Shown here piece by piece: positions 2,759 to 21,603 of a stretch of 29,790 nt of DNA. The stretch is from the IMG/VR virus record IMGVR_UViG_3300020201_000080, positions 1 to 29,790 of that record. The stretch is one strand, 5' to 3'. Position numbers and translations under genes: made by a program. Below the pieces are notes generated by a model. It did not search any database, had not been told where the DNA came from, and worked only from the letters and a program-made list of their open reading frames with translations. The stretch is from a virus. Taxonomy: Duplodnaviria; Caudoviricetes. Position 1 is the stretch's first letter. The number at the start of each line of letters is the position of its first letter.

Positions 2759-3638
2759 CGCTAATGAACTAATGATGCCAAATGGTGAGATCAATCCGTC
2801 GGCATTTGTAAATGATCCAATGAAGAAACTCGAAAAACTGAGAATTCTTTTCCCTCCAGAAAAGTACAATGTGGTAATGTTCTCGCAGTTTTTAATGAAT
2901 GCTCTCCCAGAAGGAATCACGCTAAAGCCGCAATTTGTAAGTGTTACAGATGAAGATTTGTGGGATGAAAAGAACGCAAGCGAGGTTCCACTCAAAAAAG
3001 ACCATGTAATGTTAAAATCTGAAAAGGTTATTAATATTGGTCAAGCGGTGGGAATTCGATTAGAAAAAGTTTTGGAAAAGGAAATCGAACTAAGAGGGGT
3101 GCCTCACTTACGAATTGAATATGTAGCCTCTTTGCGATTGCCGGATGGAACGATGGTGCAATCAACACCAACGGGAAAAAATCTGCCGATTCTGACGAAA
3201 TCTGGTTCTGTACAAGCTCACATTCACGAAAGCGTAGATCGCAAAGCAAAACGAAATGCGATTAAAGAAATGCTTTCTATTCCTACGCAAATGAAGCGCA
3301 CGGAAGCTCAAAAGATGTGGGTTTGTGTCCGCGCTGTCATCGGTGATGGATCAATTGAATCACAAGCACAAATCAAAACGATCCAGGCTTCCGCTACAGC
3401 GGCAACTAACGCTCTTTATAGTGACGAAGTTGTTGTGAAGAATGAACCTAAGCCAATCACACCTGATGAGTTCAAAGAGATGATTAAGAACTGCAAGACT
3501 TTCGAGGAGTGGGAAACTCTTCGTGATACTTTAGCCAAGGATATGTTCCCAGACGAAATTACGTTCGAAGGCCTCAAAGCACTTCTCGGAAAGAAATTTC
3601 GTGAATCATTTCCAAATGCTGGTGGAGGCAAGCTATGA
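2748..3638 (+). CDS. putative single-strand annealing/recombination protein
   Basis: 296 aa, immediately upstream of sbcD/sbcC homologues. Helix ESVDRKAKRNAIKEML resembles the conserved helix of Rad52/Sak-type annealases; linker then small C-terminal helical domain. Function is inferred. Confidence 0.45.
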   Translation: MSTNANELMMPNGEINPSAFVNDPMKKLEKLRILFPPEKYNVVMFSQFLMNALPEGITLKPQFVSVTDEDLWDEKNASEVPLKKDHVMLKSEKVINIGQAVGIRLEKVLEKEIELRGVPHLRIEYVASLRLPDGTMVQSTPTGKNLPILTKSGSVQAHIHESVDRKAKRNAIKEMLSIPTQMKRTEAQKMWVCVRAVIGDGSIESQAQIKTIQASATAATNALYSDEVVVKNEPKPITPDEFKEMIKNCKTFEEWETLRDTLAKDMFPDEITFEGLKALLGKKFRESFPNAGGGKL

Positions 3639-4795
3639 TCAAGATAGGCAATATTGCTGACATCCATCTTCAAGGTGGATTCGAATCAAAAGAGGCAGTC
3701 GCGCTCTTGAAAGCTGGAGAGATCTTCCGAGAGAGAAATGTTGATCTAGTGATAGTTGGCGGAGATGTTTTCGAAGATGTCTCAACAGAGGAACAGAGAT
3801 TAGTTTTCAAGAAGTTCTTAGAAGATTTTTTTGCATATACGCCAATTCTAATTATTCGAGGAAACCATGACAAGCCTAGAGAGCTCACCTTATATCATCA
3901 GAATAAAGTTCTTGGGAATGTTTTTGTTTCTGAAAAGCCAGAGATTTTTGATTTCTATATTGGATCCCAAGAAGAGCACGTTAAATTCCTTACCCTCCCT
4001 CACTTTTCAGCTGGTGCTCTCGCTCTCCAATCTGGAAGCGTTGACCAGTTAGGTGAGAAGGGGACCAACGCATTCATGGATCTTTTGGATTCTTACTATC
4101 AAGAAATCCAAAAATCAGACTGCCCTTGTTTCGTTGCATTCCATGGAACGATCTCCGGAGCCAAACTGGATAATGAGAAGATTCCAAGACAAAATGGGAT
4201 ACATCTTCCTCTTCCTCTACTCGAATCTTTTGGATGTCCAGTCGTAGGCGGTCACTACCACAAGTTGCAAAATGTTGGTGGGAAGGTCTGGTATCCTGGA
4301 TCGATCACGCGACAAACTTGGGGCGAACATAAAGACGATAAGGGAATTCTGATTTGGTCATGTAACGAAGGGAAGTGGGACGCGGAACCAGAATTCATTT
4401 CCTTGAATCCTGAGCCGATGATATCAATTTCGGCAACGTGGGACGGATCCAAATTCATTGGCGAAACTGGAGAAGAGATCAATCTTGAGTCGATTTCAGA
4501 TTCCAAAGCAAAACTTAGATTCCGATTCAATGTGGATAAAGAACTTACTCACACGGTTCCAAAAAACCTGAAAGAGATTCTATCATCAATCGATCCTTCA
4601 GCAAAAATCGAAAAAACCACTAACACGAAAATGGCGGTTCGCAATTCCGAGATTGCAACGACAAACGATATCGAAGAATCTTTGCGGATCTATTTTCAAG
4701 GCAAAGGCATGAGCGATTCAGATATCGACGCCCACCTTGCAGAGCGTAGGTTGATTGTTGAATCGGCGGAAATTAAGGAAGAGGTGGCAGCATGA
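3635..4795 (+). CDS. sbcD: SbcD/Mre11-like metallophosphoesterase nuclease
   Basis: Motifs ADIH, GGDVFE, RGNHD, FHG, GGHYH, YPGS. Confidence 0.9.
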   Translation: MIKIGNIADIHLQGGFESKEAVALLKAGEIFRERNVDLVIVGGDVFEDVSTEEQRLVFKKFLEDFFAYTPILIIRGNHDKPRELTLYHQNKVLGNVFVSEKPEIFDFYIGSQEEHVKFLTLPHFSAGALALQSGSVDQLGEKGTNAFMDLLDSYYQEIQKSDCPCFVAFHGTISGAKLDNEKIPRQNGIHLPLPLLESFGCPVVGGHYHKLQNVGGKVWYPGSITRQTWGEHKDDKGILIWSCNEGKWDAEPEFISLNPEPMISISATWDGSKFIGETGEEINLESISDSKAKLRFRFNVDKELTHTVPKNLKEILSSIDPSAKIEKTTNTKMAVRNSEIATTNDIEESLRIYFQGKGMSDSDIDAHLAERRLIVESAEIKEEVAA

Positions 4796-5286
4796 AAGGC
4801 GAGAAAGTAACATTACAATCTATTCAAGATGCAAAGAGCAATTTGTATGGAATTCGATCGGACGGAAATCTCAAAAGGGAAACATCTGGAGATCGAGACA
4901 AAGAAGTTAGAAGATTGGCGGAGTTATATCTTTCCATCTTTGATTGTGAACCAGAGCATTTGCTTCCTCCCAATGATTTTCCATCTGAGATCGATGCATC
5001 AAATCATGAGCATGGTTTTGGGATCACTCCAGAGGAAGTAGCCGAGCTCATGAAGTTCATCAACTTTCAGAATGAAACGAAAGCGAAAATTATTGATCAA
5101 AAACGAAGGAGAGATGCCGCAATTTTTACCAAGCTTTCAGAAGTTCCGTATCGTGATTGGTTAGCTGGTATGATCTATGCTGGTTACAATAATTTCACAG
5201 TGAAAATGTCGGTCGAATACGCAGACAAAATGATCAAAGAACTTTACCCAATAGAAGGAGAAATCGATGAAGATTCTGGAAATTAG
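4792..5286 (+). CDS. hypothetical phage protein
   Basis: 164 aa, overlaps both neighbours. C-terminal RDWLAGM...EYADKMI resembles a common small phage motif (RDxFA...AYxxADAM). Confidence 0.7.
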   Translation: MKGEKVTLQSIQDAKSNLYGIRSDGNLKRETSGDRDKEVRRLAELYLSIFDCEPEHLLPPNDFPSEIDASNHEHGFGITPEEVAELMKFINFQNETKAKIIDQKRRRDAAIFTKLSEVPYRDWLAGMIYAGYNNFTVKMSVEYADKMIKELYPIEGEIDEDSGN

Positions 5287-7579
5287 AAACACGGGATCGA
5301 TTGCGTTCCCAAAAGGTATTACTTGGATTCCTGGTGATGATGAGAAGGTCGCAATCATTGGCGACAATGGTTCAGGAAAAACGACTCTTCTTGATACGAT
5401 CTCAATGGCCTTCTATGGCGTGACACCAAACAGACGTTCGGAATCTGGTAGAGAGGAAGGCGCAATTTACGGATGTTTTCAGGAGAAGGCATCTTCAATA
5501 GAGGTGAAAGCCGAGATCGACGGAAAACTTATTCATGTTAAACGTCTGATCGATCCTATTGCGAAAACTCAAAAGCCATATCTCTATGTGGATGGTAAAG
5601 CTGTTACGGAAGGAAAAATGAAGGAATTCAACGAGAAATTCCTAGAATATACTGATCTTCCAGAGGATCTTTTCCTTTCTGCATTGTACCATTCCCAAAG
5701 GGGAAAAGGCCATCTCGTATCTCTCGACCAAGCCGGAGCTCGTGAACTGCTCGGAAATCTTTTAGGATTCCAAGAGTATGATTCGGAATTCGATCTTGTA
5801 GATTCTGAGCGCAAGTTAGTTGATCAGTCTCTTGCAGCTGATGAAGTCCTTACGAAAAATCTACGAGCTACTATTGCAGAAGAAGATGAAACGAAAGAAA
5901 ATCTGACTAAGGAAAAAGAAGAATCAGTTCGCATTGATAAGGATCTAAGCGATGTTGAGAAGAAAATCACAACCATCCAGCAAGAACTAGCTGATTTGAA
6001 ATCCGAATCGGTTGGAGTTCGTGATCTTCTCGAAAAGCAAACATTGGTTAAAGCCGATATCGGATTACTCGAAAAAGAGATAACTGATTTATCTGAGAGA
6101 CTCAAAAACAACCTGGCTTTGAAAGAGAAAGAGCCAGAAATCAAAAAGGCAGTTTCGGATAAAAAGCAAGTAGAAGAGAAGATCGCAGAGCTCGAAAAAT
6201 CATTATCGAATCAGCTCACAGATTTGGAATCCAAAACTAAAGAAATCGAAGAATCTAATAAAACGATCAATTTAGAAATCTCTCGATTAGAAGATGATAA
6301 GACCAAGGCACGTAAAGAATTCGATACTATCTCTTTGTCCCTTTCTGATTTAAGAAGCAAGCTTTCTAGACTTACTTCCGAACTAACTGAAGCTGAAAAG
6401 AAATCTTCTCTTCTCTCAAGAGTTCCTTGCAATGGGGTGGAGGTTTCGGGTAAGAAGCTAACAGAATCATGCGAATTGCTTGCTGATGCGGTGGCGGCTC
6501 AATCAAGAATCGTCGAGATTAAAAAGGACTTCGATCAAGTTACTATAGACTCTAATGTTCTCGTTCTTAAGTCAGATCAAATCAACCTGCAGTTAAAGAC
6601 TATTGACGATTCAAAGTTAAAGGAATCGGAAAAGTTAAAGAACTTTGATTCCCTCGCAGAATTTAAAACCGAGATCGAAAAAATCAGAAAGGAAATCCAA
6701 TCTGAAAAATTGAAACTCACTCAGTATGCAGATATCGAAAAGCAAATTGCGAATCTTGCTTTGGTCGACGAACGAGTAAAAGACTACCAGGGAAAGATCG
6801 ATATTGCTAATTCCAAAAAAGCAGAATTGACAATGAATTTAGAGAGCCTCGTAAAGTTGATTTCTGACAAACAATCCGAAGTCGATGTTCTCGAAGGAGT
6901 GGAAGAAGATCTTCGAATCAAGACTGAATGGAAGAAAATAGCTTCTTCTAAGCGAGACGAATTGATTTCTAAAATTTCCAAACTCGAAGCAAAACTAACT
7001 CAAATCGAGGAAGCGAAATCGAGATTAGAATCCCTTGGAACTCAAGCAAAACTAGATCGACTAACTAGGCTTAAGAACTTGGCTGAGGCTCTATCTCCAA
7101 AAGGAGTCCGTGCTTTGAAACTTGATGCAGCTGGTCCCGAGATTTCCCAAACAATCAACGATATCCTTTCCGAGTGTTACGGCACTAGATTCCAAGTTGC
7201 GATTCGTACAACGAAGGAAACTGGAAAGGGCGTAACGAAAGAAGACTTCTCGATCGTAGTTCTCGATGAAGAAACTGGAGAGGAAACTTTCGTTGATAAC
7301 AAGTCAGGCGGTCAGGAAGCAATCATCAAAGAAGGGATCTCACTAGGAGTCGCTGTATTTAAAAAACAAAAGACCGGTGCGGATATCAGAACTTTGATAC
7401 GAGACGAAGCGGACGGAGGACTCACGTCCAAGAATGCTCATCTTTATCAGAAGATGCTTGATAAAGCAATGATCATGGGCGGATTCGCTCAAGTGATTTT
7501 TGTATCTCATAAACCTGAGATTCAAGAACTCGCGACAACTGTATTTCGCGTGGGTGATGGTAAGGTTGTACAATTATGA
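5267..7579 (+). CDS. sbcC: SbcC/Rad50-like SMC ATPase
   Basis: Walker A GDNGSGKT, Q-loop HSQ, long coiled coil with central Cys pair, signature KSGGQ, Walker B IRDE, H-loop VSH. Confidence 0.92.
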   Translation: MKILEIRNTGSIAFPKGITWIPGDDEKVAIIGDNGSGKTTLLDTISMAFYGVTPNRRSESGREEGAIYGCFQEKASSIEVKAEIDGKLIHVKRLIDPIAKTQKPYLYVDGKAVTEGKMKEFNEKFLEYTDLPEDLFLSALYHSQRGKGHLVSLDQAGARELLGNLLGFQEYDSEFDLVDSERKLVDQSLAADEVLTKNLRATIAEEDETKENLTKEKEESVRIDKDLSDVEKKITTIQQELADLKSESVGVRDLLEKQTLVKADIGLLEKEITDLSERLKNNLALKEKEPEIKKAVSDKKQVEEKIAELEKSLSNQLTDLESKTKEIEESNKTINLEISRLEDDKTKARKEFDTISLSLSDLRSKLSRLTSELTEAEKKSSLLSRVPCNGVEVSGKKLTESCELLADAVAAQSRIVEIKKDFDQVTIDSNVLVLKSDQINLQLKTIDDSKLKESEKLKNFDSLAEFKTEIEKIRKEIQSEKLKLTQYADIEKQIANLALVDERVKDYQGKIDIANSKKAELTMNLESLVKLISDKQSEVDVLEGVEEDLRIKTEWKKIASSKRDELISKISKLEAKLTQIEEAKSRLESLGTQAKLDRLTRLKNLAEALSPKGVRALKLDAAGPEISQTINDILSECYGTRFQVAIRTTKETGKGVTKEDFSIVVLDEETGEETFVDNKSGGQEAIIKEGISLGVAVFKKQKTGADIRTLIRDEADGGLTSKNAHLYQKMLDKAMIMGGFAQVIFVSHKPEIQELATTVFRVGDGKVVQL

Positions 7580-9904: not shown

Positions 9905-10293
9905 TTTCAGATACCGTAATAATAAGTTTAAGAGGAATCGAGTGTTGCAATTGTCATGCAGTTTTCGGGATGACAGCTGATGCAAAACAAAGATACGAAC
10001 GTGATCATAGATCTTTTAAATGCCCTTATTGTTTTACTTCTCAATCGTATCGAGGGAAGTCTGATTTAGAGTTAGCCCAAGAAGCGTTAGAACGTGAACG
10101 AAAGAAAAACGAAGATAAAAATATCCAACTTCGCCATCTTGAAAATTCGCTAATCGCGGAGAAAGGACAAAAAACAAAGCTCAAGAAAAAACTTGAGCGA
10201 GTTCAAAATGGGTTATGCCCAGATTGCAATAAGTCATTTAAGCATCTTGCAAAGCATATGAAATCGAAACATGGTTGTCGTGAGGATCTATGA
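9901..10293 (+). CDS. zinc-ribbon / coiled-coil / C2H2 zinc-finger protein
   Basis: CCNC...CPYC, coiled coil, CPDCNKSFKHLAKHMKSKH. Confidence 0.7.
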   Translation: MISDTVIISLRGIECCNCHAVFGMTADAKQRYERDHRSFKCPYCFTSQSYRGKSDLELAQEALERERKKNEDKNIQLRHLENSLIAEKGQKTKLKKKLERVQNGLCPDCNKSFKHLAKHMKSKHGCREDL

Positions 10294-10958
10294 TCATGAA
10301 TGTCATCGACCGCCAAATCTTGATTACACCTAGATCGATTGTCCGTAATTACAATGAGTGGGCGGTTCTCAAGGGATATGAGCCTTCGCTTTCGATGTAT
10401 TCAAATGGGAAAACGTTCTTCGGTGAGTGGAACTATGGCCAGAACTTCAAAAACATTTCTGGGTATAAAGGAGCATACGCACAACAGGATATATCTCGTC
10501 TGCAAGCTTGTATTCCAGATATGGGAGTCCTTTTGCATTTGTTCTCCGGATCGATGCCAGTTGGTCCATATTATCGCTTGGATAATAATTTCGCAGTGAT
10601 TTCGGATGCAAGAACAGGCATTGATTTCGTCGCCGATGCCACGGAAGCACATCTTTATTTTGAGCACGAATACTTTGATGTCGTGATGGCAGATCCTCCT
10701 TGGAGTAAATACCACAGCGAAGAAATCTATAATTGTAGTTTGGTGGACAAGACTAAGGTCTTGAAATCAGTTCATCAAATCCTAAAACCAGGCGGTCTTT
10801 TGATTTGGAAGGATTATGCAAAACCAGTTTGGAGTGGAGCAGAGTATGACTATCTCGGAAGAATCTGCATTGATCCTTCCAGCGGTCACGATGATCGAAG
10901 TTTTAAATTTTATCAAAAGAAGAAGGAGATCACGAATGAAATCTTACCTCTGTCATAA
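10290..10958 (+). CDS. small amino (N6A/N4C) DNA methyltransferase-like protein
   Basis: Motif I-like HLFSGS, DVVMADPPW (motif IV), LKPGGLL. Confidence 0.75.
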   Translation: MIMNVIDRQILITPRSIVRNYNEWAVLKGYEPSLSMYSNGKTFFGEWNYGQNFKNISGYKGAYAQQDISRLQACIPDMGVLLHLFSGSMPVGPYYRLDNNFAVISDARTGIDFVADATEAHLYFEHEYFDVVMADPPWSKYHSEEIYNCSLVDKTKVLKSVHQILKPGGLLIWKDYAKPVWSGAEYDYLGRICIDPSSGHDDRSFKFYQKKKEITNEILPLS

Positions 10959-12628: not shown

Positions 12629-12792
12629 AGGTAAAAACATTAATAAGGGAACTGCAAAATTTAGACCCAAGCCAGGATGTAAAATTTTCGACTAAATGTG
12701 GCTCAACCTCAGGTAAGGTAACAGGCGTTTACATGCTCGATAAGGTTACTTTAGAATGTGAAGCCACACATTTTGATGGGGAAAGAATATGA
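12625..12792 (+). CDS. small hypothetical phage protein
   Basis: MKVKTLIRELQNLDPSQDV, a common phage microprotein N-terminus; ATGA overlap. Confidence 0.7.
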   Translation: MKVKTLIRELQNLDPSQDVKFSTKCGSTSGKVTGVYMLDKVTLECEATHFDGERI

Positions 12793-14087
12793 ATAACTCA
12801 TCAATCGAATGGACAGACAAAACCTGGAATCCTGTTTCAGGCTGCTCAAAGGTTTCCGCTGGATGTAAGAACTGCTATGCGGATGCAATGTTTACGAGAT
12901 TCAAATCGAAATGGGGTGAGTTCAACGATGTGAAGTGCCACGAGGACAAACTCGATGAACCGTTTAAGTTGAAGAAGCCGTCAAAGATTTTCGTGAATTC
13001 AATGAGCGATTTGTTCCATGAGAAGGTGCCATTCGAGTTTATCGATAAAGTTATGGCTGTCATTGCACTCAATCCGAAACACACTTTCCAAGTTCTTACC
13101 AAAAGACCAGAAAGAATGAAAGAGTATTTCGATTCATGGAATCAAATTGGCGGTGATTTCAATTTAACTGAGGCGATGGATGAAATAGAGGAAGAACTCT
13201 TACGTCACGAAATTTCTGGCGAACTCAAAAAGCAATTTCGTCCCGAACGTGGAAATGAAATCGATGACTCATTAATATACGATTCACGTCCACCTGTCAT
13301 TCTGAAAAACCTATGGCTCGGTGTCTCTGTCGAAGATCAAAAGACCGCCGATGAGAGAATCCCAGTTTTGTTACATATTCCAAGCTACATTCGGTTTCTA
13401 TCCTGTGAACCGTTATTAGGTCGAATTAAGTTCGATGATCTTTTAAAAAATTGGAATGCTTATGATCCAAAAATGTTCAAAATCGATTGGGTAATTGTAG
13501 GAGGGGAATCTGGAATAGGGGCAAGAGAGATGCATCCAGACTGGGTTCGCTCTATCTTGAGTGAATGTGCCGATATGAGTATACCATTCTTTTTCAAGCA
13601 GTGGGGGGAGTGGATCTCGACAGATCAAGGTTCAGAACTTGATGAAATTCCCGTAAAGCCAGAACATTTAATTCCTATAAATATAGGAGGAAGACTGTCG
13701 ACGCATTCTTTGATAAAAGTCGGCAAGAAAAAAGCTGGCTCATTGTTAGACGGCAAAGAATGGAAAGAGTTTCCAAGGGTTGGGGGAATGAGTATGGAAA
13801 ATAATAAACCAACAGAACTTGAAGAAAAAATCATACAAGCTGCACATATCGCTTGTATGGAATCTGGAATGGAAAAATCTCCAACCCCTAATCGGCTAAT
13901 TGATAAACTTCGCAAAATCATGCCACCTACTTGCACAACTAACGAAAGGCAATTTTTGGATGAGATAAGAGAAAAGTGCAAATGGTTCCCATACAGTGAT
14001 GGAATGATTGGAATGAAACCAAATGGCAACGCGACCAACATTTTTCAGGTAAATTTTGAGACAAACTTAAGGGAGCTAGTAGAATGA
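12789..14087 (+). CDS. DUF5131 (phage Gp37/Gp68) family protein with a C-terminal extension
   Basis: IEWTDKTWNPVSGCSKVSAGCKNCYA, FVNSMSDLFHE, LTKRPER, WLGVSVE, SCEPLLG, WVIVGGESG, FFKQWG, LLDGKEWKEFP. Confidence 0.92.
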   Translation: MNNSSIEWTDKTWNPVSGCSKVSAGCKNCYADAMFTRFKSKWGEFNDVKCHEDKLDEPFKLKKPSKIFVNSMSDLFHEKVPFEFIDKVMAVIALNPKHTFQVLTKRPERMKEYFDSWNQIGGDFNLTEAMDEIEEELLRHEISGELKKQFRPERGNEIDDSLIYDSRPPVILKNLWLGVSVEDQKTADERIPVLLHIPSYIRFLSCEPLLGRIKFDDLLKNWNAYDPKMFKIDWVIVGGESGIGAREMHPDWVRSILSECADMSIPFFFKQWGEWISTDQGSELDEIPVKPEHLIPINIGGRLSTHSLIKVGKKKAGSLLDGKEWKEFPRVGGMSMENNKPTELEEKIIQAAHIACMESGMEKSPTPNRLIDKLRKIMPPTCTTNERQFLDEIREKCKWFPYSDGMIGMKPNGNATNIFQVNFETNLRELVE

Positions 14088-16026: not shown

Positions 16027-16114
16027 TTCCCCAGTATATCAAAAAAATAGTTTACTTCTAAGTTCATTCTTTAGTGTGAAATATAACTAATTAATGTTAT
16101 ACGAGGTAGATTAG

Positions 16115-16531
16115 ATGAAAGCAATTAAAGAGATTATTGAAACAAACGGTGGGATGGGATATTTAAAAAACCATCCGTCGATTAAAATTCAGAACAGTGT
16201 ATATATGGATTTGATCATAGAATACATTGGTGATGATGAGAGAGGAAATCCTCTTATTTCTGTAGCACATTATTATGTGCAGAATGGCGATCTAATGTCA
16301 GATCCAGAAATAGTATTTTCCGTAGACATCGATTGGAACTTTACTCCTATTTCTATAACTCAATCGGCTTTCGGAAGATACCATGAAGTGTATTTTGTCC
16401 GAGATGGAAAGTATTACAAGAATCTAGTTTTATACAAGGAACTGGTCGGATTCTCAAAAATATGGAATAAGAATATTGTTGAGCAAGGATTTGTCAAAGT
16501 CTTCAAAAAGCTAAAGGCGATTGCGTGTTAG
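16115..16531 (+). CDS. DUF6908-like protein
   Basis: YMDLIIE, ISVAHYYVQNGDLMSDPE, WNKNIVEQGF; SD GAGG. Family name from recall. Confidence 0.7.
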   Translation: MKAIKEIIETNGGMGYLKNHPSIKIQNSVYMDLIIEYIGDDERGNPLISVAHYYVQNGDLMSDPEIVFSVDIDWNFTPISITQSAFGRYHEVYFVRDGKYYKNLVLYKELVGFSKIWNKNIVEQGFVKVFKKLKAIAC

Positions 16532-16758
16532 CGAATGATTTACAATCACCAGATAATCTTTCTGGTGATTCCTTGGAAGATATTCACTATCAATTGAAAT
16601 TAATAAAGCTAATGTTGCTTAGTGGAGAGATTGACTATGAACGTGCAAAAGAAAAGGCAAAGCCTTACATCGAAATTCTTAATGCAAAAGCGAACATTAT
16701 TGCTCGTAAGTACGGAAAACAATTTTATCCAATTAGCTTTTTAGGATTCATGAGATGA
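16525..16758 (+). CDS. hypothetical protein
   Basis: 77 aa, GTG start overlapping the upstream stop. Confidence 0.65.
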   Translation: MLANDLQSPDNLSGDSLEDIHYQLKLIKLMLLSGEIDYERAKEKAKPYIEILNAKANIIARKYGKQFYPISFLGFMR

Positions 16759-17135
16759 AGATTTATACAAGCTACTTCGGATTTGTTAAGAAACTCCCAG
16801 AGACAATTATTCCGATATCAATTTCGAGATATGCGAGATTTTGGAAAGGAAGAGAGTATAAGAATTTGGCTCCCGATCCAGCAATTATGAATTATTCTGA
16901 AGAAAGATACTCAGAAAGATTTAACGCATATCTAGAATCACTAAATATCGAGAGAGTGATAGAAGAATTGCTTATACTTTCTTCAGGGAAAGATTGTGCT
17001 CTTTTGTGCTACGAAAAACCAGAGGACTTCTGTCATAGAAAATTAGTCGCTAGGTGGATTCAAAATAAAAAAGGGATTGAAGTTTCAGAATTCGTTGATC
17101 AATCTGATTCGGAGAATCCCGGGTTATTTAGCTGA
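16755..17135 (+). CDS. DUF488 family protein
   Basis: IYTSYF, LAP, and LLCYEKPEDFCHR signature. Confidence 0.85.
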   Translation: MKIYTSYFGFVKKLPETIIPISISRYARFWKGREYKNLAPDPAIMNYSEERYSERFNAYLESLNIERVIEELLILSSGKDCALLCYEKPEDFCHRKLVARWIQNKKGIEVSEFVDQSDSENPGLFS

Positions 17136-18430
17136 GTTTTATTGGATCTGTACCACCTGAAGCAAGAGCAATCTTAATAGATTTGTTACAATTTGTCCCC
17201 AAATCAGAACATCTTTACGTTGGATGTTCTGGGAATTTCACTATAGATAGAATCTTATCCAATCAAGGTTATTCTATTCATTCCAACGATGTTTCTTTAT
17301 ATTCTAAAACGATTTCGGAAATCGTTCTTGGGAAAAAATCTGAATTCATTTGTATCGATCCAATTTACAAATCAGTTTTTTCAAAATGGAAGGACTCGAA
17401 ATTCAAATCCATAATTCAGATTATGTTCGTGCTAAAAACTTCTGCATTCAGGCCATGCAAAAATGATTATCAAAAATCGATGTGGGAATCTTACCTACAA
17501 AAGTCGGATGAGTTTTATGAGAAGAGCCTCAATAAATTTGAAAAGAATGAAGTTTTTGATTTTAAGATCGATTCATTTCATTACGGAGATTTTCGAGATC
17601 ACATAAGTGAAGCACGCGGAACCTCTTTAATTTTTGCACCTACATACAAAGGTGGATATGAAAAAATTTATCAGACGATCGAAGAAGTCTTTGAATATGA
17701 AAGGGCTGTTTATTCAATTTTCGATAGTAAAGCCGCTGGAAGTATTTATTTAGACATTTTGGAAAAAGGGAAATCCATTATTTATTCTGACATAGATTTT
17801 AAGGAATTGAGTACTTATAAAAGAGGAGTGGTTCAATTTCCAAAGAAGAGGAATATATTCCTTTATTCAAATGTGAGTGATAAAAAGTATTTTTTTACAA
17901 CTCCAGAATCCAAAAAAGATCTAAATGCAAAGATAATTCCTTCTGATTTTTCTTTCTCGAATTCCACAAAGATATCCATAGCGAAAGTACAATCTGAATT
18001 AATTTTCCACTACAAGCACTTGTTCATGTCTTCAAGAGTGAATTACTCGGAAAACGAAGACTTCGGAATCGCATTTTTAGCGGACGGAATGATTTTTGGG
18101 TTTGCTGGGTTTAATAAATTTATGAGTTCGGAAGAAAACTTATTTTTATCTAGCGACTTTGTTTTTCCATCCGGAGAGAAAAGACTATCAAAACTCCTTA
18201 TCATGCTTCTTCTTTCGAAGGAGATTAGGAAGCTATTAATTCGGCACTACATCCATGCTTATCAAGGTCTTAAGACTTCTGTTTATACTGAGCATCCAAT
18301 TTCTATGAAATACCGCGGCATTTTTGAATTACTTGATCGGAAAAAGGGGAAACTTGTCTACCAGCAAGAATTCAAAAATGAATATATTAACGAGGTATTT
18401 ATTAGGTGGTTCAAAACAAAGAGGAAATAA
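17132..18430 (+). CDS. putative DNA-modification protein: methyltransferase-like N-terminal half plus GNAT/Mom-like C-terminal half (probable CTG start)
   Basis: Gly-rich YVGCSGNF, GDF, and APTY (DPPY-like position). C-terminal IFGFAGF, FLSSDF, RLSKLL, SMKYRG. Frame is open from CTG 17132 (track start 17183). Domain calls are inferred. Confidence 0.6.
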   Translation: MSFIGSVPPEARAILIDLLQFVPKSEHLYVGCSGNFTIDRILSNQGYSIHSNDVSLYSKTISEIVLGKKSEFICIDPIYKSVFSKWKDSKFKSIIQIMFVLKTSAFRPCKNDYQKSMWESYLQKSDEFYEKSLNKFEKNEVFDFKIDSFHYGDFRDHISEARGTSLIFAPTYKGGYEKIYQTIEEVFEYERAVYSIFDSKAAGSIYLDILEKGKSIIYSDIDFKELSTYKRGVVQFPKKRNIFLYSNVSDKKYFFTTPESKKDLNAKIIPSDFSFSNSTKISIAKVQSELIFHYKHLFMSSRVNYSENEDFGIAFLADGMIFGFAGFNKFMSSEENLFLSSDFVFPSGEKRLSKLLIMLLLSKEIRKLLIRHYIHAYQGLKTSVYTEHPISMKYRGIFELLDRKKGKLVYQQEFKNEYINEVFIRWFKTKRK

Positions 18431-19143
18431 GGAAGAAGCTCGAAGAAATAAACGAGATCATTTCTCCCTATAAACTGGCTTGGGTAAATCCCCAAGAGGA
18501 TTGCGAACTTCTACGCAATAACGCAAGATACATGACTCCAGACCAAATGGAGAAGCTAGTTCGGAATATTAAAACGGATGGTTTCCTTTCCCAGCTTCCT
18601 TTTGCAGTGAAATCGGGTGAAAAATTCAGAATAATTTCTGGAAATCACAGAGTAACCGCAGCGATCAAGGCCAGTCTTTTGGGAATCCTTATCCTCTATG
18701 TAGATGAGATAGACGCACAAAAGGAAATCGCGATCCAGTTATCTCACAATTCTATCGTTGGCCAGGATGATATCGGAATTCTAAAACAACTCTATAGCCA
18801 GATCCAAGAGATTGATCTTAAAGCCTATTCAGGTATAGATGAGAAATTACTCCTCAATTATCAAATACCTGAATTAGTTCCTATATCTGAATCAGACATC
18901 CAGCTAAATGAAGTAAGACTTTTTTACTCAGATTTAGATTTAACCAGGTTTGATCAGATACTAGAACGATTAGAAAAATCAATCATCGATGAGAAAAGAG
19001 ACAGGATCATTTTTGGTGATTTTACCAACTTTGTTGAAACTTTAACAAAAGTTAAGAAAAAGATAAATGTAAAAAATCATTCAGTTGCTTTTATTCGAAT
19101 GCTGGAAATTTGCGAAGACTATTTAAACGAAAAGGAAGCTTAA
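18406..19143 (+). CDS. ParB/Srx N-terminal domain protein
   Basis: NARYM...LVRNIKTDGF...IISGNHRV..A, SHNSIVG. Confidence 0.85.
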   Translation: MVQNKEEIRKKLEEINEIISPYKLAWVNPQEDCELLRNNARYMTPDQMEKLVRNIKTDGFLSQLPFAVKSGEKFRIISGNHRVTAAIKASLLGILILYVDEIDAQKEIAIQLSHNSIVGQDDIGILKQLYSQIQEIDLKAYSGIDEKLLLNYQIPELVPISESDIQLNEVRLFYSDLDLTRFDQILERLEKSIIDEKRDRIIFGDFTNFVETLTKVKKKINVKNHSVAFIRMLEICEDYLNEKEA

Positions 19144-19586
19144 TGCGAAACCATGGACGCCCATCCAAACTAACAGAAGATACGAAAAAGAAACTTTTTG
19201 CAGCTATTTCCAATGGCCATAGTTATGAAACTGCATGTGCCCTTAGCGGAATTTCCGAGAGAACATTTTACTTCTGGAAAAAAAAAGCAGAGAATCAAAA
19301 TGAGAGAGGTGAATTTTTTCAGTTTATTCAGGAACTAAAAAGCACCGAGGCGATCGCTAAAGTAAAACTACTAAACGATATTCAAAAAGACCCTTCCTGG
19401 CAGTCCAAAGCCTGGATACTTGAAAGACGTTGGTCCAGGGAATGGGGTAAGAAGCAATTAGTGGATCTCCTGAATGAAAAGCTAAAAGATATTGATTTCA
19501 ATCGTCTCACCGATATTCAGCTGAACAGGATTCAGAGCGGTGAAGATGTGTTAGATGTTCTTTTGGAGGACTTAAAAGCTAGGTAG
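19143..19586 (+). CDS. HTH protein, small-terminase-like
   Basis: GRPSKLT...ISNG...TACALSGISERTFYFW...WQSKAWILERRW..EWG; TAATG overlap at 19143. Confidence 0.7.
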   Translation: MRNHGRPSKLTEDTKKKLFAAISNGHSYETACALSGISERTFYFWKKKAENQNERGEFFQFIQELKSTEAIAKVKLLNDIQKDPSWQSKAWILERRWSREWGKKQLVDLLNEKLKDIDFNRLTDIQLNRIQSGEDVLDVLLEDLKAR

Positions 19587-19592
19587 GTATTT

Positions 19593-20195
19593 ATGAAAAA
19601 AAGCTCTAAAACAAAAATTAATGATAAGCAAAAACTCTTTATTCAGAGCTTTATTACGGATTTTAACGCTTCGCGTGCTTATCGCGAAGTTTATGGAGTA
19701 AAGAACGAAAGAACGGCAGTGGCAGCTAGTTCCAGATTGTTGACAAATGTTGACATTGTTCAATATAAGAACGAACTCCTTAAGCAAATCTTGGATTCGA
19801 AAATTGAGGATTTGAGGTATAGAATTCAAAACGAATTAGTGGTAAGATCTTTTATCAGAGTAAATGATGTAATGAATAAGGAAGGGGAATTTGATCTTGA
19901 GAAAATAAAGAATCTCCCATTAGGAATGGTTAAGAAAATCACGATCATCAAGGAATTCACAAAGGACGGTAGCCCGATAATGAATCACCATCTTGAATTA
20001 GGTGATAATCATAAGCCTCTCGAACTTTTAGGAAAAACCGTTGGATCTTTTGACAAAATAAATCAATCGGATGTGTTACAATTCTTAAAGGATATTGATC
20101 TGACAAAACTTTCAGAAGACCAGTTACTGCGTATCAGTAATGGTGAGAATCCGCTAGAGGTACTCTTTGGCCATTACCGCCGTATTACCGCTTGA
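19593..20195 (+). CDS. terS: terminase small subunit
   Basis: KQKLFIQSFITDFNASRAY..YG...ASSRLLTNVDI, KPLELLGK; directly upstream of TerL. Confidence 0.88.
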   Translation: MKKSSKTKINDKQKLFIQSFITDFNASRAYREVYGVKNERTAVAASSRLLTNVDIVQYKNELLKQILDSKIEDLRYRIQNELVVRSFIRVNDVMNKEGEFDLEKIKNLPLGMVKKITIIKEFTKDGSPIMNHHLELGDNHKPLELLGKTVGSFDKINQSDVLQFLKDIDLTKLSEDQLLRISNGENPLEVLFGHYRRITA

Positions 20196-21603
20196 GCTAA
20201 GAGTTAAGATCGCTCGTGAAATCAAATCACGAGAGGACGATTCTGAGAAGCAAGAGATTCTATCTTTCAAGGAGTTTATTCGTAAGTTTATACCGCATTT
20301 TAAATTTTACTGGCACACTGAAGTAATCATTCAGCGCCTTCAGGATGTTGCAGATGGAAAGATCAATCGTTTGATGATCTTTCTGCCTCCGAGACATTCC
20401 AAATCGGAACTTGTTTCAAGAATTTTCCCAGCATACATCCAGTATGCTTATAAAAATCGTCATGTTGGCCTCTGTTCGTATTCTGCGGACTTAGCAACTG
20501 GTTTTGGATGGGATGCCCGAGAGAACTATAAAAGAACCGGTGGAAGGCTTTTAAAAGAAGCTTCGAAGAAATGGAAAGCCTGGCATGGCGGTGAGATGTG
20601 GTCGGCTGGGGTCGGCGGTCCCATTACTGGAAAGGGTTTTCACATTGGAGAAATTGATGATCCGATCAAGAATGCTCAGGATGCTCAATCAGAGACCATA
20701 AGAACAAAGCATATTCAATGGTATCAATCCACTTTTTATTCCAGAGCAGAACCAGGTGAAGCTATCATACTTTGTATGACGAGGTGGCATGAAGGGGACC
20801 TTGCCGGTTGGCTTCTTGATCAAGAAAAAATCGGTGATGAGGAATCTGAGCGATGGCACATCATTCATTATGAAGCCATAAAGACATCCAAAGCATATAA
20901 ATATCCAGATAGCTGCACCGTTGAACCAGACCCACGTAAAACAGGCGATGCCCTATGTCCTGAAAGATATCCAGTAAGTAGGCTTAAACGTATCGAAAAG
21001 CGAATCGGTTCATACTATTGGAATGCACTTTATCAAGGATGGCCAACTTCCTTCGGTGGAAATATTGTTCGAAAAGAATGGATAAGAGAATACACTCATC
21101 TTCCTGAAGGAAATCGATTATACATTCAATCTTGGGACCTTACTTTTGATGATACTGTAAATTCAGATTATGTTGTTGGAACAGTTTGGTGCAAGATCGG
21201 TGCGAATAAGTATTTAATCGATATGTATAGAAAACAGGCCGACATCATCGAAACGATGAGGGCAATAAGAACTTTCAAGAGCATTTATCCAGAAACATCT
21301 GCAATTCTTATAGAAAACGCTGCAAATGGAAAGGCAACTAACAAACTTTTAAAAAATGAAATTGCAGGGATTATTTTACGAGATCCAGCTGGGAGCAAGC
21401 CGGATAGATTACGCGCTGCAGCTCCTCAATTTGAAGCTGGCAATGTATTCTTTCCCAAAAACTCAGCGTTCGTAGATCTTGTCGTACACGAGTTACTTGG
21501 CTTCCCAACCGCCAAACATGATGACATTGTTGATACGATTTCAATGGGCCTTCTGTATCTTGAAAATCCAGATGTCTTTAAACCGAATTTTGTTTATGTA
21601 TAA
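20167..21603 (+). CDS. terL: terminase large subunit
   Basis: PPRHSKS (Walker A), GGPITGKG..IDDPIK (Walker B), MTRWHEGDL, nuclease motifs SWDL, IEN..NG, HDDIVD. Confidence 0.95.
   Translation: MAITAVLPLELRVKIAREIKSREDDSEKQEILSFKEFIRKFIPHFKFYWHTEVIIQRLQDVADGKINRLMIFLPPRHSKSELVSRIFPAYIQYAYKNRHVGLCSYSADLATGFGWDARENYKRTGGRLLKEASKKWKAWHGGEMWSAGVGGPITGKGFHIGEIDDPIKNAQDAQSETIRTKHIQWYQSTFYSRAEPGEAIILCMTRWHEGDLAGWLLDQEKIGDEESERWHIIHYEAIKTSKAYKYPDSCTVEPDPRKTGDALCPERYPVSRLKRIEKRIGSYYWNALYQGWPTSFGGNIVRKEWIREYTHLPEGNRLYIQSWDLTFDDTVNSDYVVGTVWCKIGANKYLIDMYRKQADIIETMRAIRTFKSIYPETSAILIENAANGKATNKLLKNEIAGIILRDPAGSKPDRLRAAAPQFEAGNVFFPKNSAFVDLVVHELLGFPTAKHDDIVDTISMGLLYLENPDVFKPNFVYV

Follow-up and report, generated by a model that had tools for sequence, protein, structure and literature searches.

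The 29,790-nucleotide stretch of DNA analyzed here over its whole length (hereinafter, the window; IMG/VR virus record IMGVR_UViG_3300020201_000080, Caudoviricetes) encodes, ahead of its terminase genes, a conserved unit of three genes, namely, a DUF488 protein, a protein in which a Dam-like domain is fused to a GNAT domain, and a ParB-like protein. This module is likely to hypermodify phage DNA after replication, protecting it from host restriction, and the reading that we favor, with some reservation, as the best one for the core module is a Mom-like transfer of the glycyl group from Gly-tRNA to DNA, probably followed by further elaboration of the product. The initial annotation, made from the sequence of the window, had proposed that six overlapping genes encode an uncharacterized pathway of base hypermodification and antirestriction that is delivered at packaging, with a chemistry that may not be simple methylation.

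The conserved unit and its link to terminases

The neighborhoods of the fusion gene were surveyed in a sample of 160 loci (two, plus the 80 best from each of two sets, 106 viral and 146 genomic loci) that fell into 54 clusters at 70% identity; only loci with enough flanking sequence were counted. A ParB gene is present near the fusion gene in 49 of 50 clusters and a DUF488 gene in 34 of 46, and a gene for the terminase large subunit (TerL) lies within 4.5 kb downstream in 37 of 44. The expectation that the genes of the cassette would be linked in other genomes was borne out for DUF488, the fusion and ParB but not for the remaining genes, only three of the six traveling together outside the Leptospira-type phages. 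In particular, the DUF6908 gene is found near the fusion gene in 9 of 136 loci (3 of 46 clusters) and the 77-aa open reading frame (ORF) in 8 of 146 loci (2 of 48 clusters), and on these cluster counts both were rejected as members of the pathway and are considered local extras. Given these counts, the diversity of the adjacent terminases and the arrangement in two cultured phages (see below), the conserved unit is DUF488, the Dam-GNAT fusion and ParB. Several loci show variations of the layout: in L083, two DUF6908 paralogues are arranged in tandem (4497-5433), in L076 and L155 the fusion is split across two reading frames, and in the Desulfosarcina and Desulfovibrio loci L113, L145 and L151 the gene order is rearranged so that ParB precedes the fusion.

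The terminases that accompany the cassette belong to the gpA, TerL_ATPase, Terminase_3, Terminase_6 and phrog_2 types, which are mutually unrelated (18 TerL seeds, of which those from L019 and L121 were unconfirmed as TerL by Pfam or PHROGs). The TerL of the window has no BLAST match to the TerLs of L002 and L083, whereas the core genes are 53-70% identical between the window and these two loci, and the portal protein 41-42%. The fusion is present in 15 cultured-phage records, and in the two that were opened, those of the Mycobacterium phage Argie and the Gordonia phage Jollymon, the three core genes stand together, 8-10 kb away from the terminase. Most of the phages with the L007-type TerL carry no cassette. 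The module could still be a part of the packaging machine that marks DNA or pac sites for the terminase and acts during packaging, as its proximity to TerL in most clusters would suggest; furthermore, the enzymes of ParB-terminase loci have a predicted role in DNA modification during packaging, according to PMC4738411. However, the mechanistic tie to packaging drawn in the initial annotation finds no support in the terminase evidence: because the TerL types are unrelated and the two cultured phages separate the genes, the link to the terminase is positional, and we consider a packaging component quite improbable. The placement ahead of terS and terL most likely reflects late expression. What the present module has in common with the phage ParB-Tls modification loci (PMC4738411) is an orphan ParB beside a predicted DNA-modifying enzyme near TerL; the catalytic partner differs from those in the ParB-Tls loci and from the ParB-dependent T-dioxygenases.

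In the window, two genes resembling the terminase small subunit (TerS) are found in tandem (19143-19586 and 19593-20195), and their products have in common a C-terminal stretch of 28 residues (54% identity, E=3e-6). This tandem arrangement, together with the unrelated TerL, suggests that a terminase module was swapped in behind an older TerS with a helix-turn-helix (HTH) domain.

The Dam-GNAT fusion protein

In the AlphaFold2 model of the fusion (predicted local distance difference test, pLDDT, 89; predicted TM-score, pTM, 0.60), residues 1-250 match Dam-type DNA methyltransferases and residues 275-416 match GNATs by both Foldseek and VIA, so the two-domain architecture suspected from the sequence is upheld by structure prediction, with a Dam-type Rossmann domain that includes a target-recognition insert and a GNAT domain that has Mom among its best matches. 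The chains of the Dam family have VIA Z scores of 12.8-10.3; E. coli Dam (2g1p) aligns over 195 residues with Z 12.5 and a root-mean-square deviation (rmsd) of 5.1, and the target-recognition insert is of the alpha class. Over residues 1-250, the fold, the domain order and the motifs of the S-adenosylmethionine (SAM) site are like those of the Dam/D12 enzymes (E. coli Dam, T4 Dam and DpnM; Z 10.3-12.5), and F3, G5, G34, D53, D153 and P170 are invariant in all 51 homologues, so that the residues of the SAM site are kept. Unlike in the Dam/D12 enzymes, the DPPY motif gives way to xPTY or xPFY. Of 119 distinct proteins, 118 could be parsed for motif IV; all of these have the form F/Y-x-P-T/F-Y/F/W, x being P, A, L, Q, M or T, and none has D, N or S. 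The window protein has APTY, which a collinear profile alignment, though a weak one (E=0.02), places on DPPY. There was no match to PF02086 at E<=0.1 among the proteins of the window and none in the genome, the comparison of the fusion profile with the single T4 Dam sequence was not significant, and a search of the sequences of solved structures with alignment A1 gave no match at E<=10. Because the SAM-site residues are invariant and yet motif IV never contains D, N or S, the fusion is, judging by sequence, unlikely to be an ordinary N6 methyltransferase.

The GNAT half aligns with Mu Mom over 134 residues (VIA Z 10.6, rmsd 3.2), Mom being the first GNAT row, with other GNATs tied within 1; Foldseek returns GNATs as well, Mom (8bv8) ranking fifth. 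In this domain, G323, D342, K354, L355, T382, S391 and K393 are invariant in 51 of 51 homologues, and the window protein has H388 where most homologues have K. The HTH-like insert of Mom (approximately residues 175-209) is absent: strands 398-404 and 407-413 of the fusion are joined by a turn of two residues, as the topology places them.

A tRNA-Gly-like RNA beside the fusion gene

In phage Argie, a tRNA-Gly is annotated directly before the fusion gene. ARAGORN reported a tRNA in 83 of the 160 loci; most are tRNA-Gly or a Gly-type RNA whose anticodon loop has six bases, and they lie immediately upstream of the fusion gene. With default settings, tRNA-Gly was found near the fusion gene in 6 of the 54 clusters and the Gly-type RNA with the six-nucleotide loop in one more, compared with one cluster each for Cys and Phe; at -ps90, Gly was called in 13 clusters and any other amino acid in 3 at most, and at -ps85 the output was mostly noise. 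Covariance models (R1 and R2) built from the RNAs of these loci recovered additional copies that are more reduced; one of them precedes Jollymon gp29. R2 finds the RNA in 20 of the 46 clusters that have 2.5 kb upstream, a count that is partly circular because both models were trained on RNAs from these very loci; R2 covered 94 of the 160 loci, the remainder being searched with ARAGORN only. The presence of the RNA is scattered over the tree of the fusion protein, with at least 13 changes forced on a quick tree, so it does not mark a single lineage.

Two controls address the specificity of this association. Among 51 viral loci that share one TerL, 32 of which have 5 kb upstream, the RNA was found in 4 of the 7 with a GNAT-phage-like cassette versus none of the 25 without, although the Fisher p=0.001 is overstated because these loci include near-identical kin. 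In the second control, none of the 38 cassette-free loci fetched with the window TerL (20 with 5 kb upstream) had such an RNA, the sole match being a tRNA-Met. A home-made descriptor for tRNAs gave too much noise (113 background matches) and was excluded from the counts; it did flag L123 as well as L128, L129, L131 and L150. The latter four contain very reduced Gly-type RNAs with an encoded CCA end, about 4 kb upstream of the fusion and near a displaced DUF488 gene, which come from the descriptor scan only and are uncounted. In L248 (11498-11574), a tRNA-like gene with a CTAA anticodon loop, possibly suppressor-like or degenerate, is located downstream of TerL. There was no carrier of the RNA among the listed sequencing runs.

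The anatomy of these RNAs is unusual. The G1-C72 and C2-G71 acceptor pairs are kept in 32 of 32 RNAs and G3-C70 in 31 of 32, and the other stem pairs covary (score 0.69 versus 0.19 when shuffled; the alignment used had been fitted to the structure). The RNAs also retain U73 and the anticodon CC, and the models select for both; together with the acceptor pairs, these are the identity bases of glycyl-tRNA synthetase. In the set of 35 distinct copies, some of them near kin, 24 parse with a seven-base anticodon loop, and U33 is missing in 14 of these 24, the anticodons being ACC, CCC and TCC in 8 copies each. The TTC of the T-loop is missing in 10 of the 35, and several copies have shortened D arms or loops of four to six bases (in three parses, an apparent five-base loop is one of seven bases in which 32 and 38 pair). 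Such a pattern is expected if the RNAs are selected for charging rather than for decoding. Retention of a glycine tRNA for a GNAT-fold transferase rather than for the ribosome is not without parallel: the staphylococcal FemXAB proteins use a non-proteinogenic tRNA-Gly. In that case, glycine is passed to peptidoglycan from a chromosomally encoded tRNA, whereas here the acceptor would be DNA and the donor a phage RNA, some copies of which are far more reduced.

A rival interpretation is that the module modifies DNA by ordinary chemistry, that is, methylation from SAM by a divergent Dam, acylation from acyl-CoA by the GNAT, or both, with the tRNA-Gly as incidental cargo. It draws on the invariance of G34, D53 and D153 in the SAM site, on acetyl-CoA GNATs that score as high as Mom, on the absence of the RNA from the window and from more than half of the clusters, and on the NCBI label of adenine methyltransferase. 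We nevertheless regard it as unlikely, if by no means far-fetched, given that the motif IV acid is never present, that the enrichment beside the gene is specific for glycine and absent from the cassette-free controls, and that the RNAs have often lost translation features while keeping the synthetase identity bases. The missing D/N/S in motif IV and the tRNA-Gly link also speak for the chemistry beyond plain methylation that had been surmised from the sequence.

Alternatively, the target itself might be RNA, the GNAT acetylating Gly-tRNA-Gly or the enzyme modifying tRNA, with the phage RNA serving as a decoy or resistant substitute in host shut-off or anti-defense. GNAT toxins do act on charged tRNA, TacT on Gly-tRNA-Gly (PMC13219725), such an enzyme could recognize the conserved bases of the acceptor stem, and further down the structural matches there are RNA methyltransferases (Z 10.4-9.5). 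However, the best matches are DNA methyltransferases that align over the whole domain, including the target-recognition insert (183-196 residues versus 142-154 for the others), the ParB-terminase loci carry enzymes that modify DNA (PMC4738411), and a large share of the RNAs seem unsuited to translation and hence unable to rescue it. An RNA target therefore appears improbable to us.

A sister system

A related arrangement, in which a fusion of amidoligase, DAM-like-phage2 and GNAT domains is encoded together with ParB and DUF488, is found in gut phages of the Bacteroidota type (L253, L255, L275, L276, L291 and L300-L377). Here, a tRNA-Gly-like RNA, usually in two tandem copies, is present in 76 of 77 held-out loci, which are, however, close relatives. 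Within this set, otherwise identical copies of the RNA switch between the anticodons CCC and ACC. The near-identical tRNAs at 881-953 of L276 and of L253 differ in the anticodon, which gives a call of Gly(TCC) for one and of Arg(TCT) for the other, and both keep the Gly acceptor stem.

ParB and DUF488

The top Foldseek matches of the ParB-like protein are ParB/Noc CTPase domains (E 9e-6), and its SGNHR sequence (the GxxR nucleotide motif), N39, N115 and D121 are invariant in all 46 relatives. The predicted complex of the fusion with ParB scored 0.53 versus 0.00 for the best control, with at least 71% agreement in contacts between runs and a partner pLDDT of at least 68; the mark on this scale was reached by 116 of 157 solved and 2 of 215 mismatched pairs, and the scores from the mark up to 0.60 comprise only 18 of the 157 solved pairs but both of the mismatches. 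The model thus lends weak support to a fusion-ParB complex. By analogy, ParB is likely to be an activator of the fusion: activation of a phage DNA-modifying dioxygenase by ParB is demonstrated experimentally (PMC13229309), and activation is putative here. In DUF488, the residues C85, C93, H94 and R95 are invariant in 37 of 37 aligned relatives.

Proposed mechanism

Mom transfers glycine from Gly-tRNA-Gly to the N6 of adenine in double-stranded DNA, and all E. coli tRNA-Gly isoacceptors support it, according to PMC13219725. Mom (PF25680, PDB 8BV8) is a single, stand-alone enzyme that uses host tRNA and depends on the HTH-like insert and on R111, S124, D149 and R151. The GNAT fold, the proposed Gly-tRNA-Gly donor and the post-replicative antirestriction role would be common to both systems. 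In contrast to Mom, the GNAT domain here forms part of a fusion with a Dam-like domain, has no such insert and differs in its invariant residues; it comes with ParB and DUF488, and the relatives often have an RNA of their own.

Under Mom-like glycyl transfer, the cassette genes would be expressed late, ahead of the packaging operon, and host glycyl-tRNA synthetase would charge the dedicated phage RNA or, in the case of the window, host tRNA-Gly as in Mu. The Dam-like domain would bind double-stranded DNA and flip the base, replacing the DNA-binding insert of Mom, and the GNAT domain would move the glycyl group onto the exocyclic amine of the base, probably adenine. The SAM site devoid of the DPPY aspartate might then methylate the new glycyl amine or might have a role in binding only; this is the weakest step, and a guess. 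ParB would activate or load the enzyme, and DUF488, again a guess and a speculative one, might act as a phosphatase on an intermediate or on the donor RNA.

Apart from the circularity and kinship that qualify the RNA counts, several observations weigh against glycyl transfer to adenine. By sequence, the fusion is not a member of the Mom family: the hhalign profile comparison gives E=0.015 with a probability of 3%, the single-sequence comparison E=0.68, and there is no match to PF25680. None of the four essential residues of Mom is matched in the weak profile alignment, and R111, D149 and R151 have no clear counterparts. The base could be cytosine because Mcbe1, an N4-cytosine methyltransferase, heads the structural matches of the Dam-like half (Z 12.8). 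The RNA is missing from 26 of the 46 clusters; in the window, ARAGORN and Rfam (three chance-level matches) found no tRNA-like RNA and R1/R2 no significant match, and no tRNA-Gly-like RNA was found in the prophage contig of the genome or in the Leptospira-type loci searched, so that the use of glycine by this particular copy is deduced from its relatives. Finally, no modified nucleoside or restriction protection for the family was found in the sources searched. The absence of the RNA is compatible with its being an optional source, given that Mom works with every E. coli isoacceptor.

The cassette in the window

The window belongs to contig C16 of its own genome and has the makeup of a prophage, with its closest proteins in Leptospira. 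The cassette is present in a single copy in the genome, and a sample of 151 genomes from the class yielded GNAT-phage-like in 5. As described originally, six ORFs on the + strand follow in tandem an AT-rich gap (Table 1) and run into the terminase genes: successive overlaps are 7, 4, 4, 25 and 1 nt, and the second TerS gene begins 6 nt after the sixth gene and overlaps TerL. The gap compares with a local GC content of about 33%, and a consensus scan for sigma-70-like sites returned 6 versus 16 expected, none of them on the + strand of the gap. The reported motifs CYE...CHR, GCSGNF, APTY and SGNHR are all present. NCBIfam gave no match for the first four cassette genes.

Table 1. Genes, domains and the intergenic gap of the cassette region
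Feature	Positions	Strand	Evidence and remarks
Intergenic gap, 88 nt	16027..16114	.	GC 26%; no tRNA-like element
DUF6908 protein, 138 aa	16115..16531	+	PF21849 E=1.4e-31; accessory, mostly Leptospira-type phages
77-aa ORF	16525..16758	+	phrog_10302 E=1.8e-7; accessory
DUF488-N3a protein, 126 aa, core	16755..17135	+	PF22751 E=1.4e-11, 45.2 bits (cut-off 27); C85-x-E87...C93-H-R
Dam-GNAT fusion, 432 aa, core	17132..18430	+	PF22555 and PF22559; CTG start
Dam-like N-terminal domain of the fusion, aa 1-256	17132..17899	+	PF22555 DAM-like-phage1 E=1.5e-38, 133.1 bits (cut-off 27)
GNAT C-terminal domain of the fusion, aa 272-432	17945..18430	+	PF22559 GNAT-phage-like E=4.1e-29, 102 bits (cut-off 27)
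ParB-CTPase-fold protein, 245 aa, core	18406..19143	+	PF02195 ParB_N E=0.0018, 18.7 bits, under the cut-off of 26.3; SGNHR intact
HTH TerS-like gene, 147 aa from ATG	19143..19586	+	phrog_4102 E=2.9e-38; HTH_28
Second TerS	19593..20195	+	PF03592/PF03237/TIGR01630, joint evidence with TerL; context, outside the core
TerL	20167..21603	+	PF03592/PF03237/TIGR01630, joint evidence with second TerS; context, outside the core

The fusion gene starts with CTG at 17132, where six Leptospira-type relatives and L019 have ATG. This start codon, the lack of a donor RNA and H388 in place of the usual K might be taken as signs that the cassette of the window is a decaying relic, but all its reading frames are intact and coupled, and every family-invariant residue is kept, which makes decay highly improbable.

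Elsewhere in the window, a KilA-N/ANT antirepressor (1150-2019), a metallophosphoesterase (3635-4795) and a long AAA_23 ATPase (5267-7579) are encoded, the latter two presumably forming an SbcD/SbcC (Mre11/Rad50) pair. Upstream of the cassette, there are a small methyltransferase-like ORF (10290-10958) and a DUF5131 protein with weak radical-SAM matches (12789-14087); DUF5131 was rejected as a linked member because it is near the cassette in only 4 of 40 clusters.

Relation to existing annotation

The module was already noticed computationally, as there are Pfam families for its proteins and an NCBI label for a homologue. The window proteins are full members, over the cut-offs, of PF22555, PF22559 and PF22751, families that reportedly originate from work by Burroughs and Aravind in 2023, and the name 'putative antirestriction adenine methyltransferase' is attached to homologue P0067 and to Atlas clusters. 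This computational label sits poorly with the missing acid of motif IV. The description of the pathway as uncharacterized is thus apt for experiments only, the families having both Pfam entries and a name. Literature searches, conducted mostly at the level of listings and with the source paper of the families and all supplements outside their scope, returned no paper on the activity of the cassette or on the tRNA-Gly link; the main text of PMC8670742 does not mention the search terms, and the Soos announcement (PMC11008160) contains nothing on DNA modification. The system is, then, a known prediction, the core of which is here narrowed to three genes; the present analysis adds two sets of controls, a sister system, an RNA anatomy at odds with translation and cultured phages that carry the module.

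Significance

The fusion family comprises 1,101 proteins at E<=0.001, and Argie and Jollymon, which grow on laboratory hosts, carry the three core genes along with the RNA. The tRNA-Gly link names a candidate donor and predicts a mass increment of +57 Da, or +71 Da if the adduct is methylated. Conceivably, although we advance this only tentatively and with considerable doubt, phages of at least nine bacterial phyla make an undescribed base, a glycyl adduct methylated by a repurposed Dam or, in the sister system, extended by the amidoligase, and feed its synthesis with a family of reduced tRNA-Gly RNAs of their own, charged by the host synthetase but kept out of translation, the RNA being a cofactor dedicated to DNA modification. 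If the glycyl transfer from tRNA-Gly is true, Mom-type chemistry would not be an oddity of Mu, and the Dam fold would have been re-used. In addition, tRNAs that take no part in translation would be retained by phages as cofactors, and this would account for a class of phage tRNA annotations that look odd.

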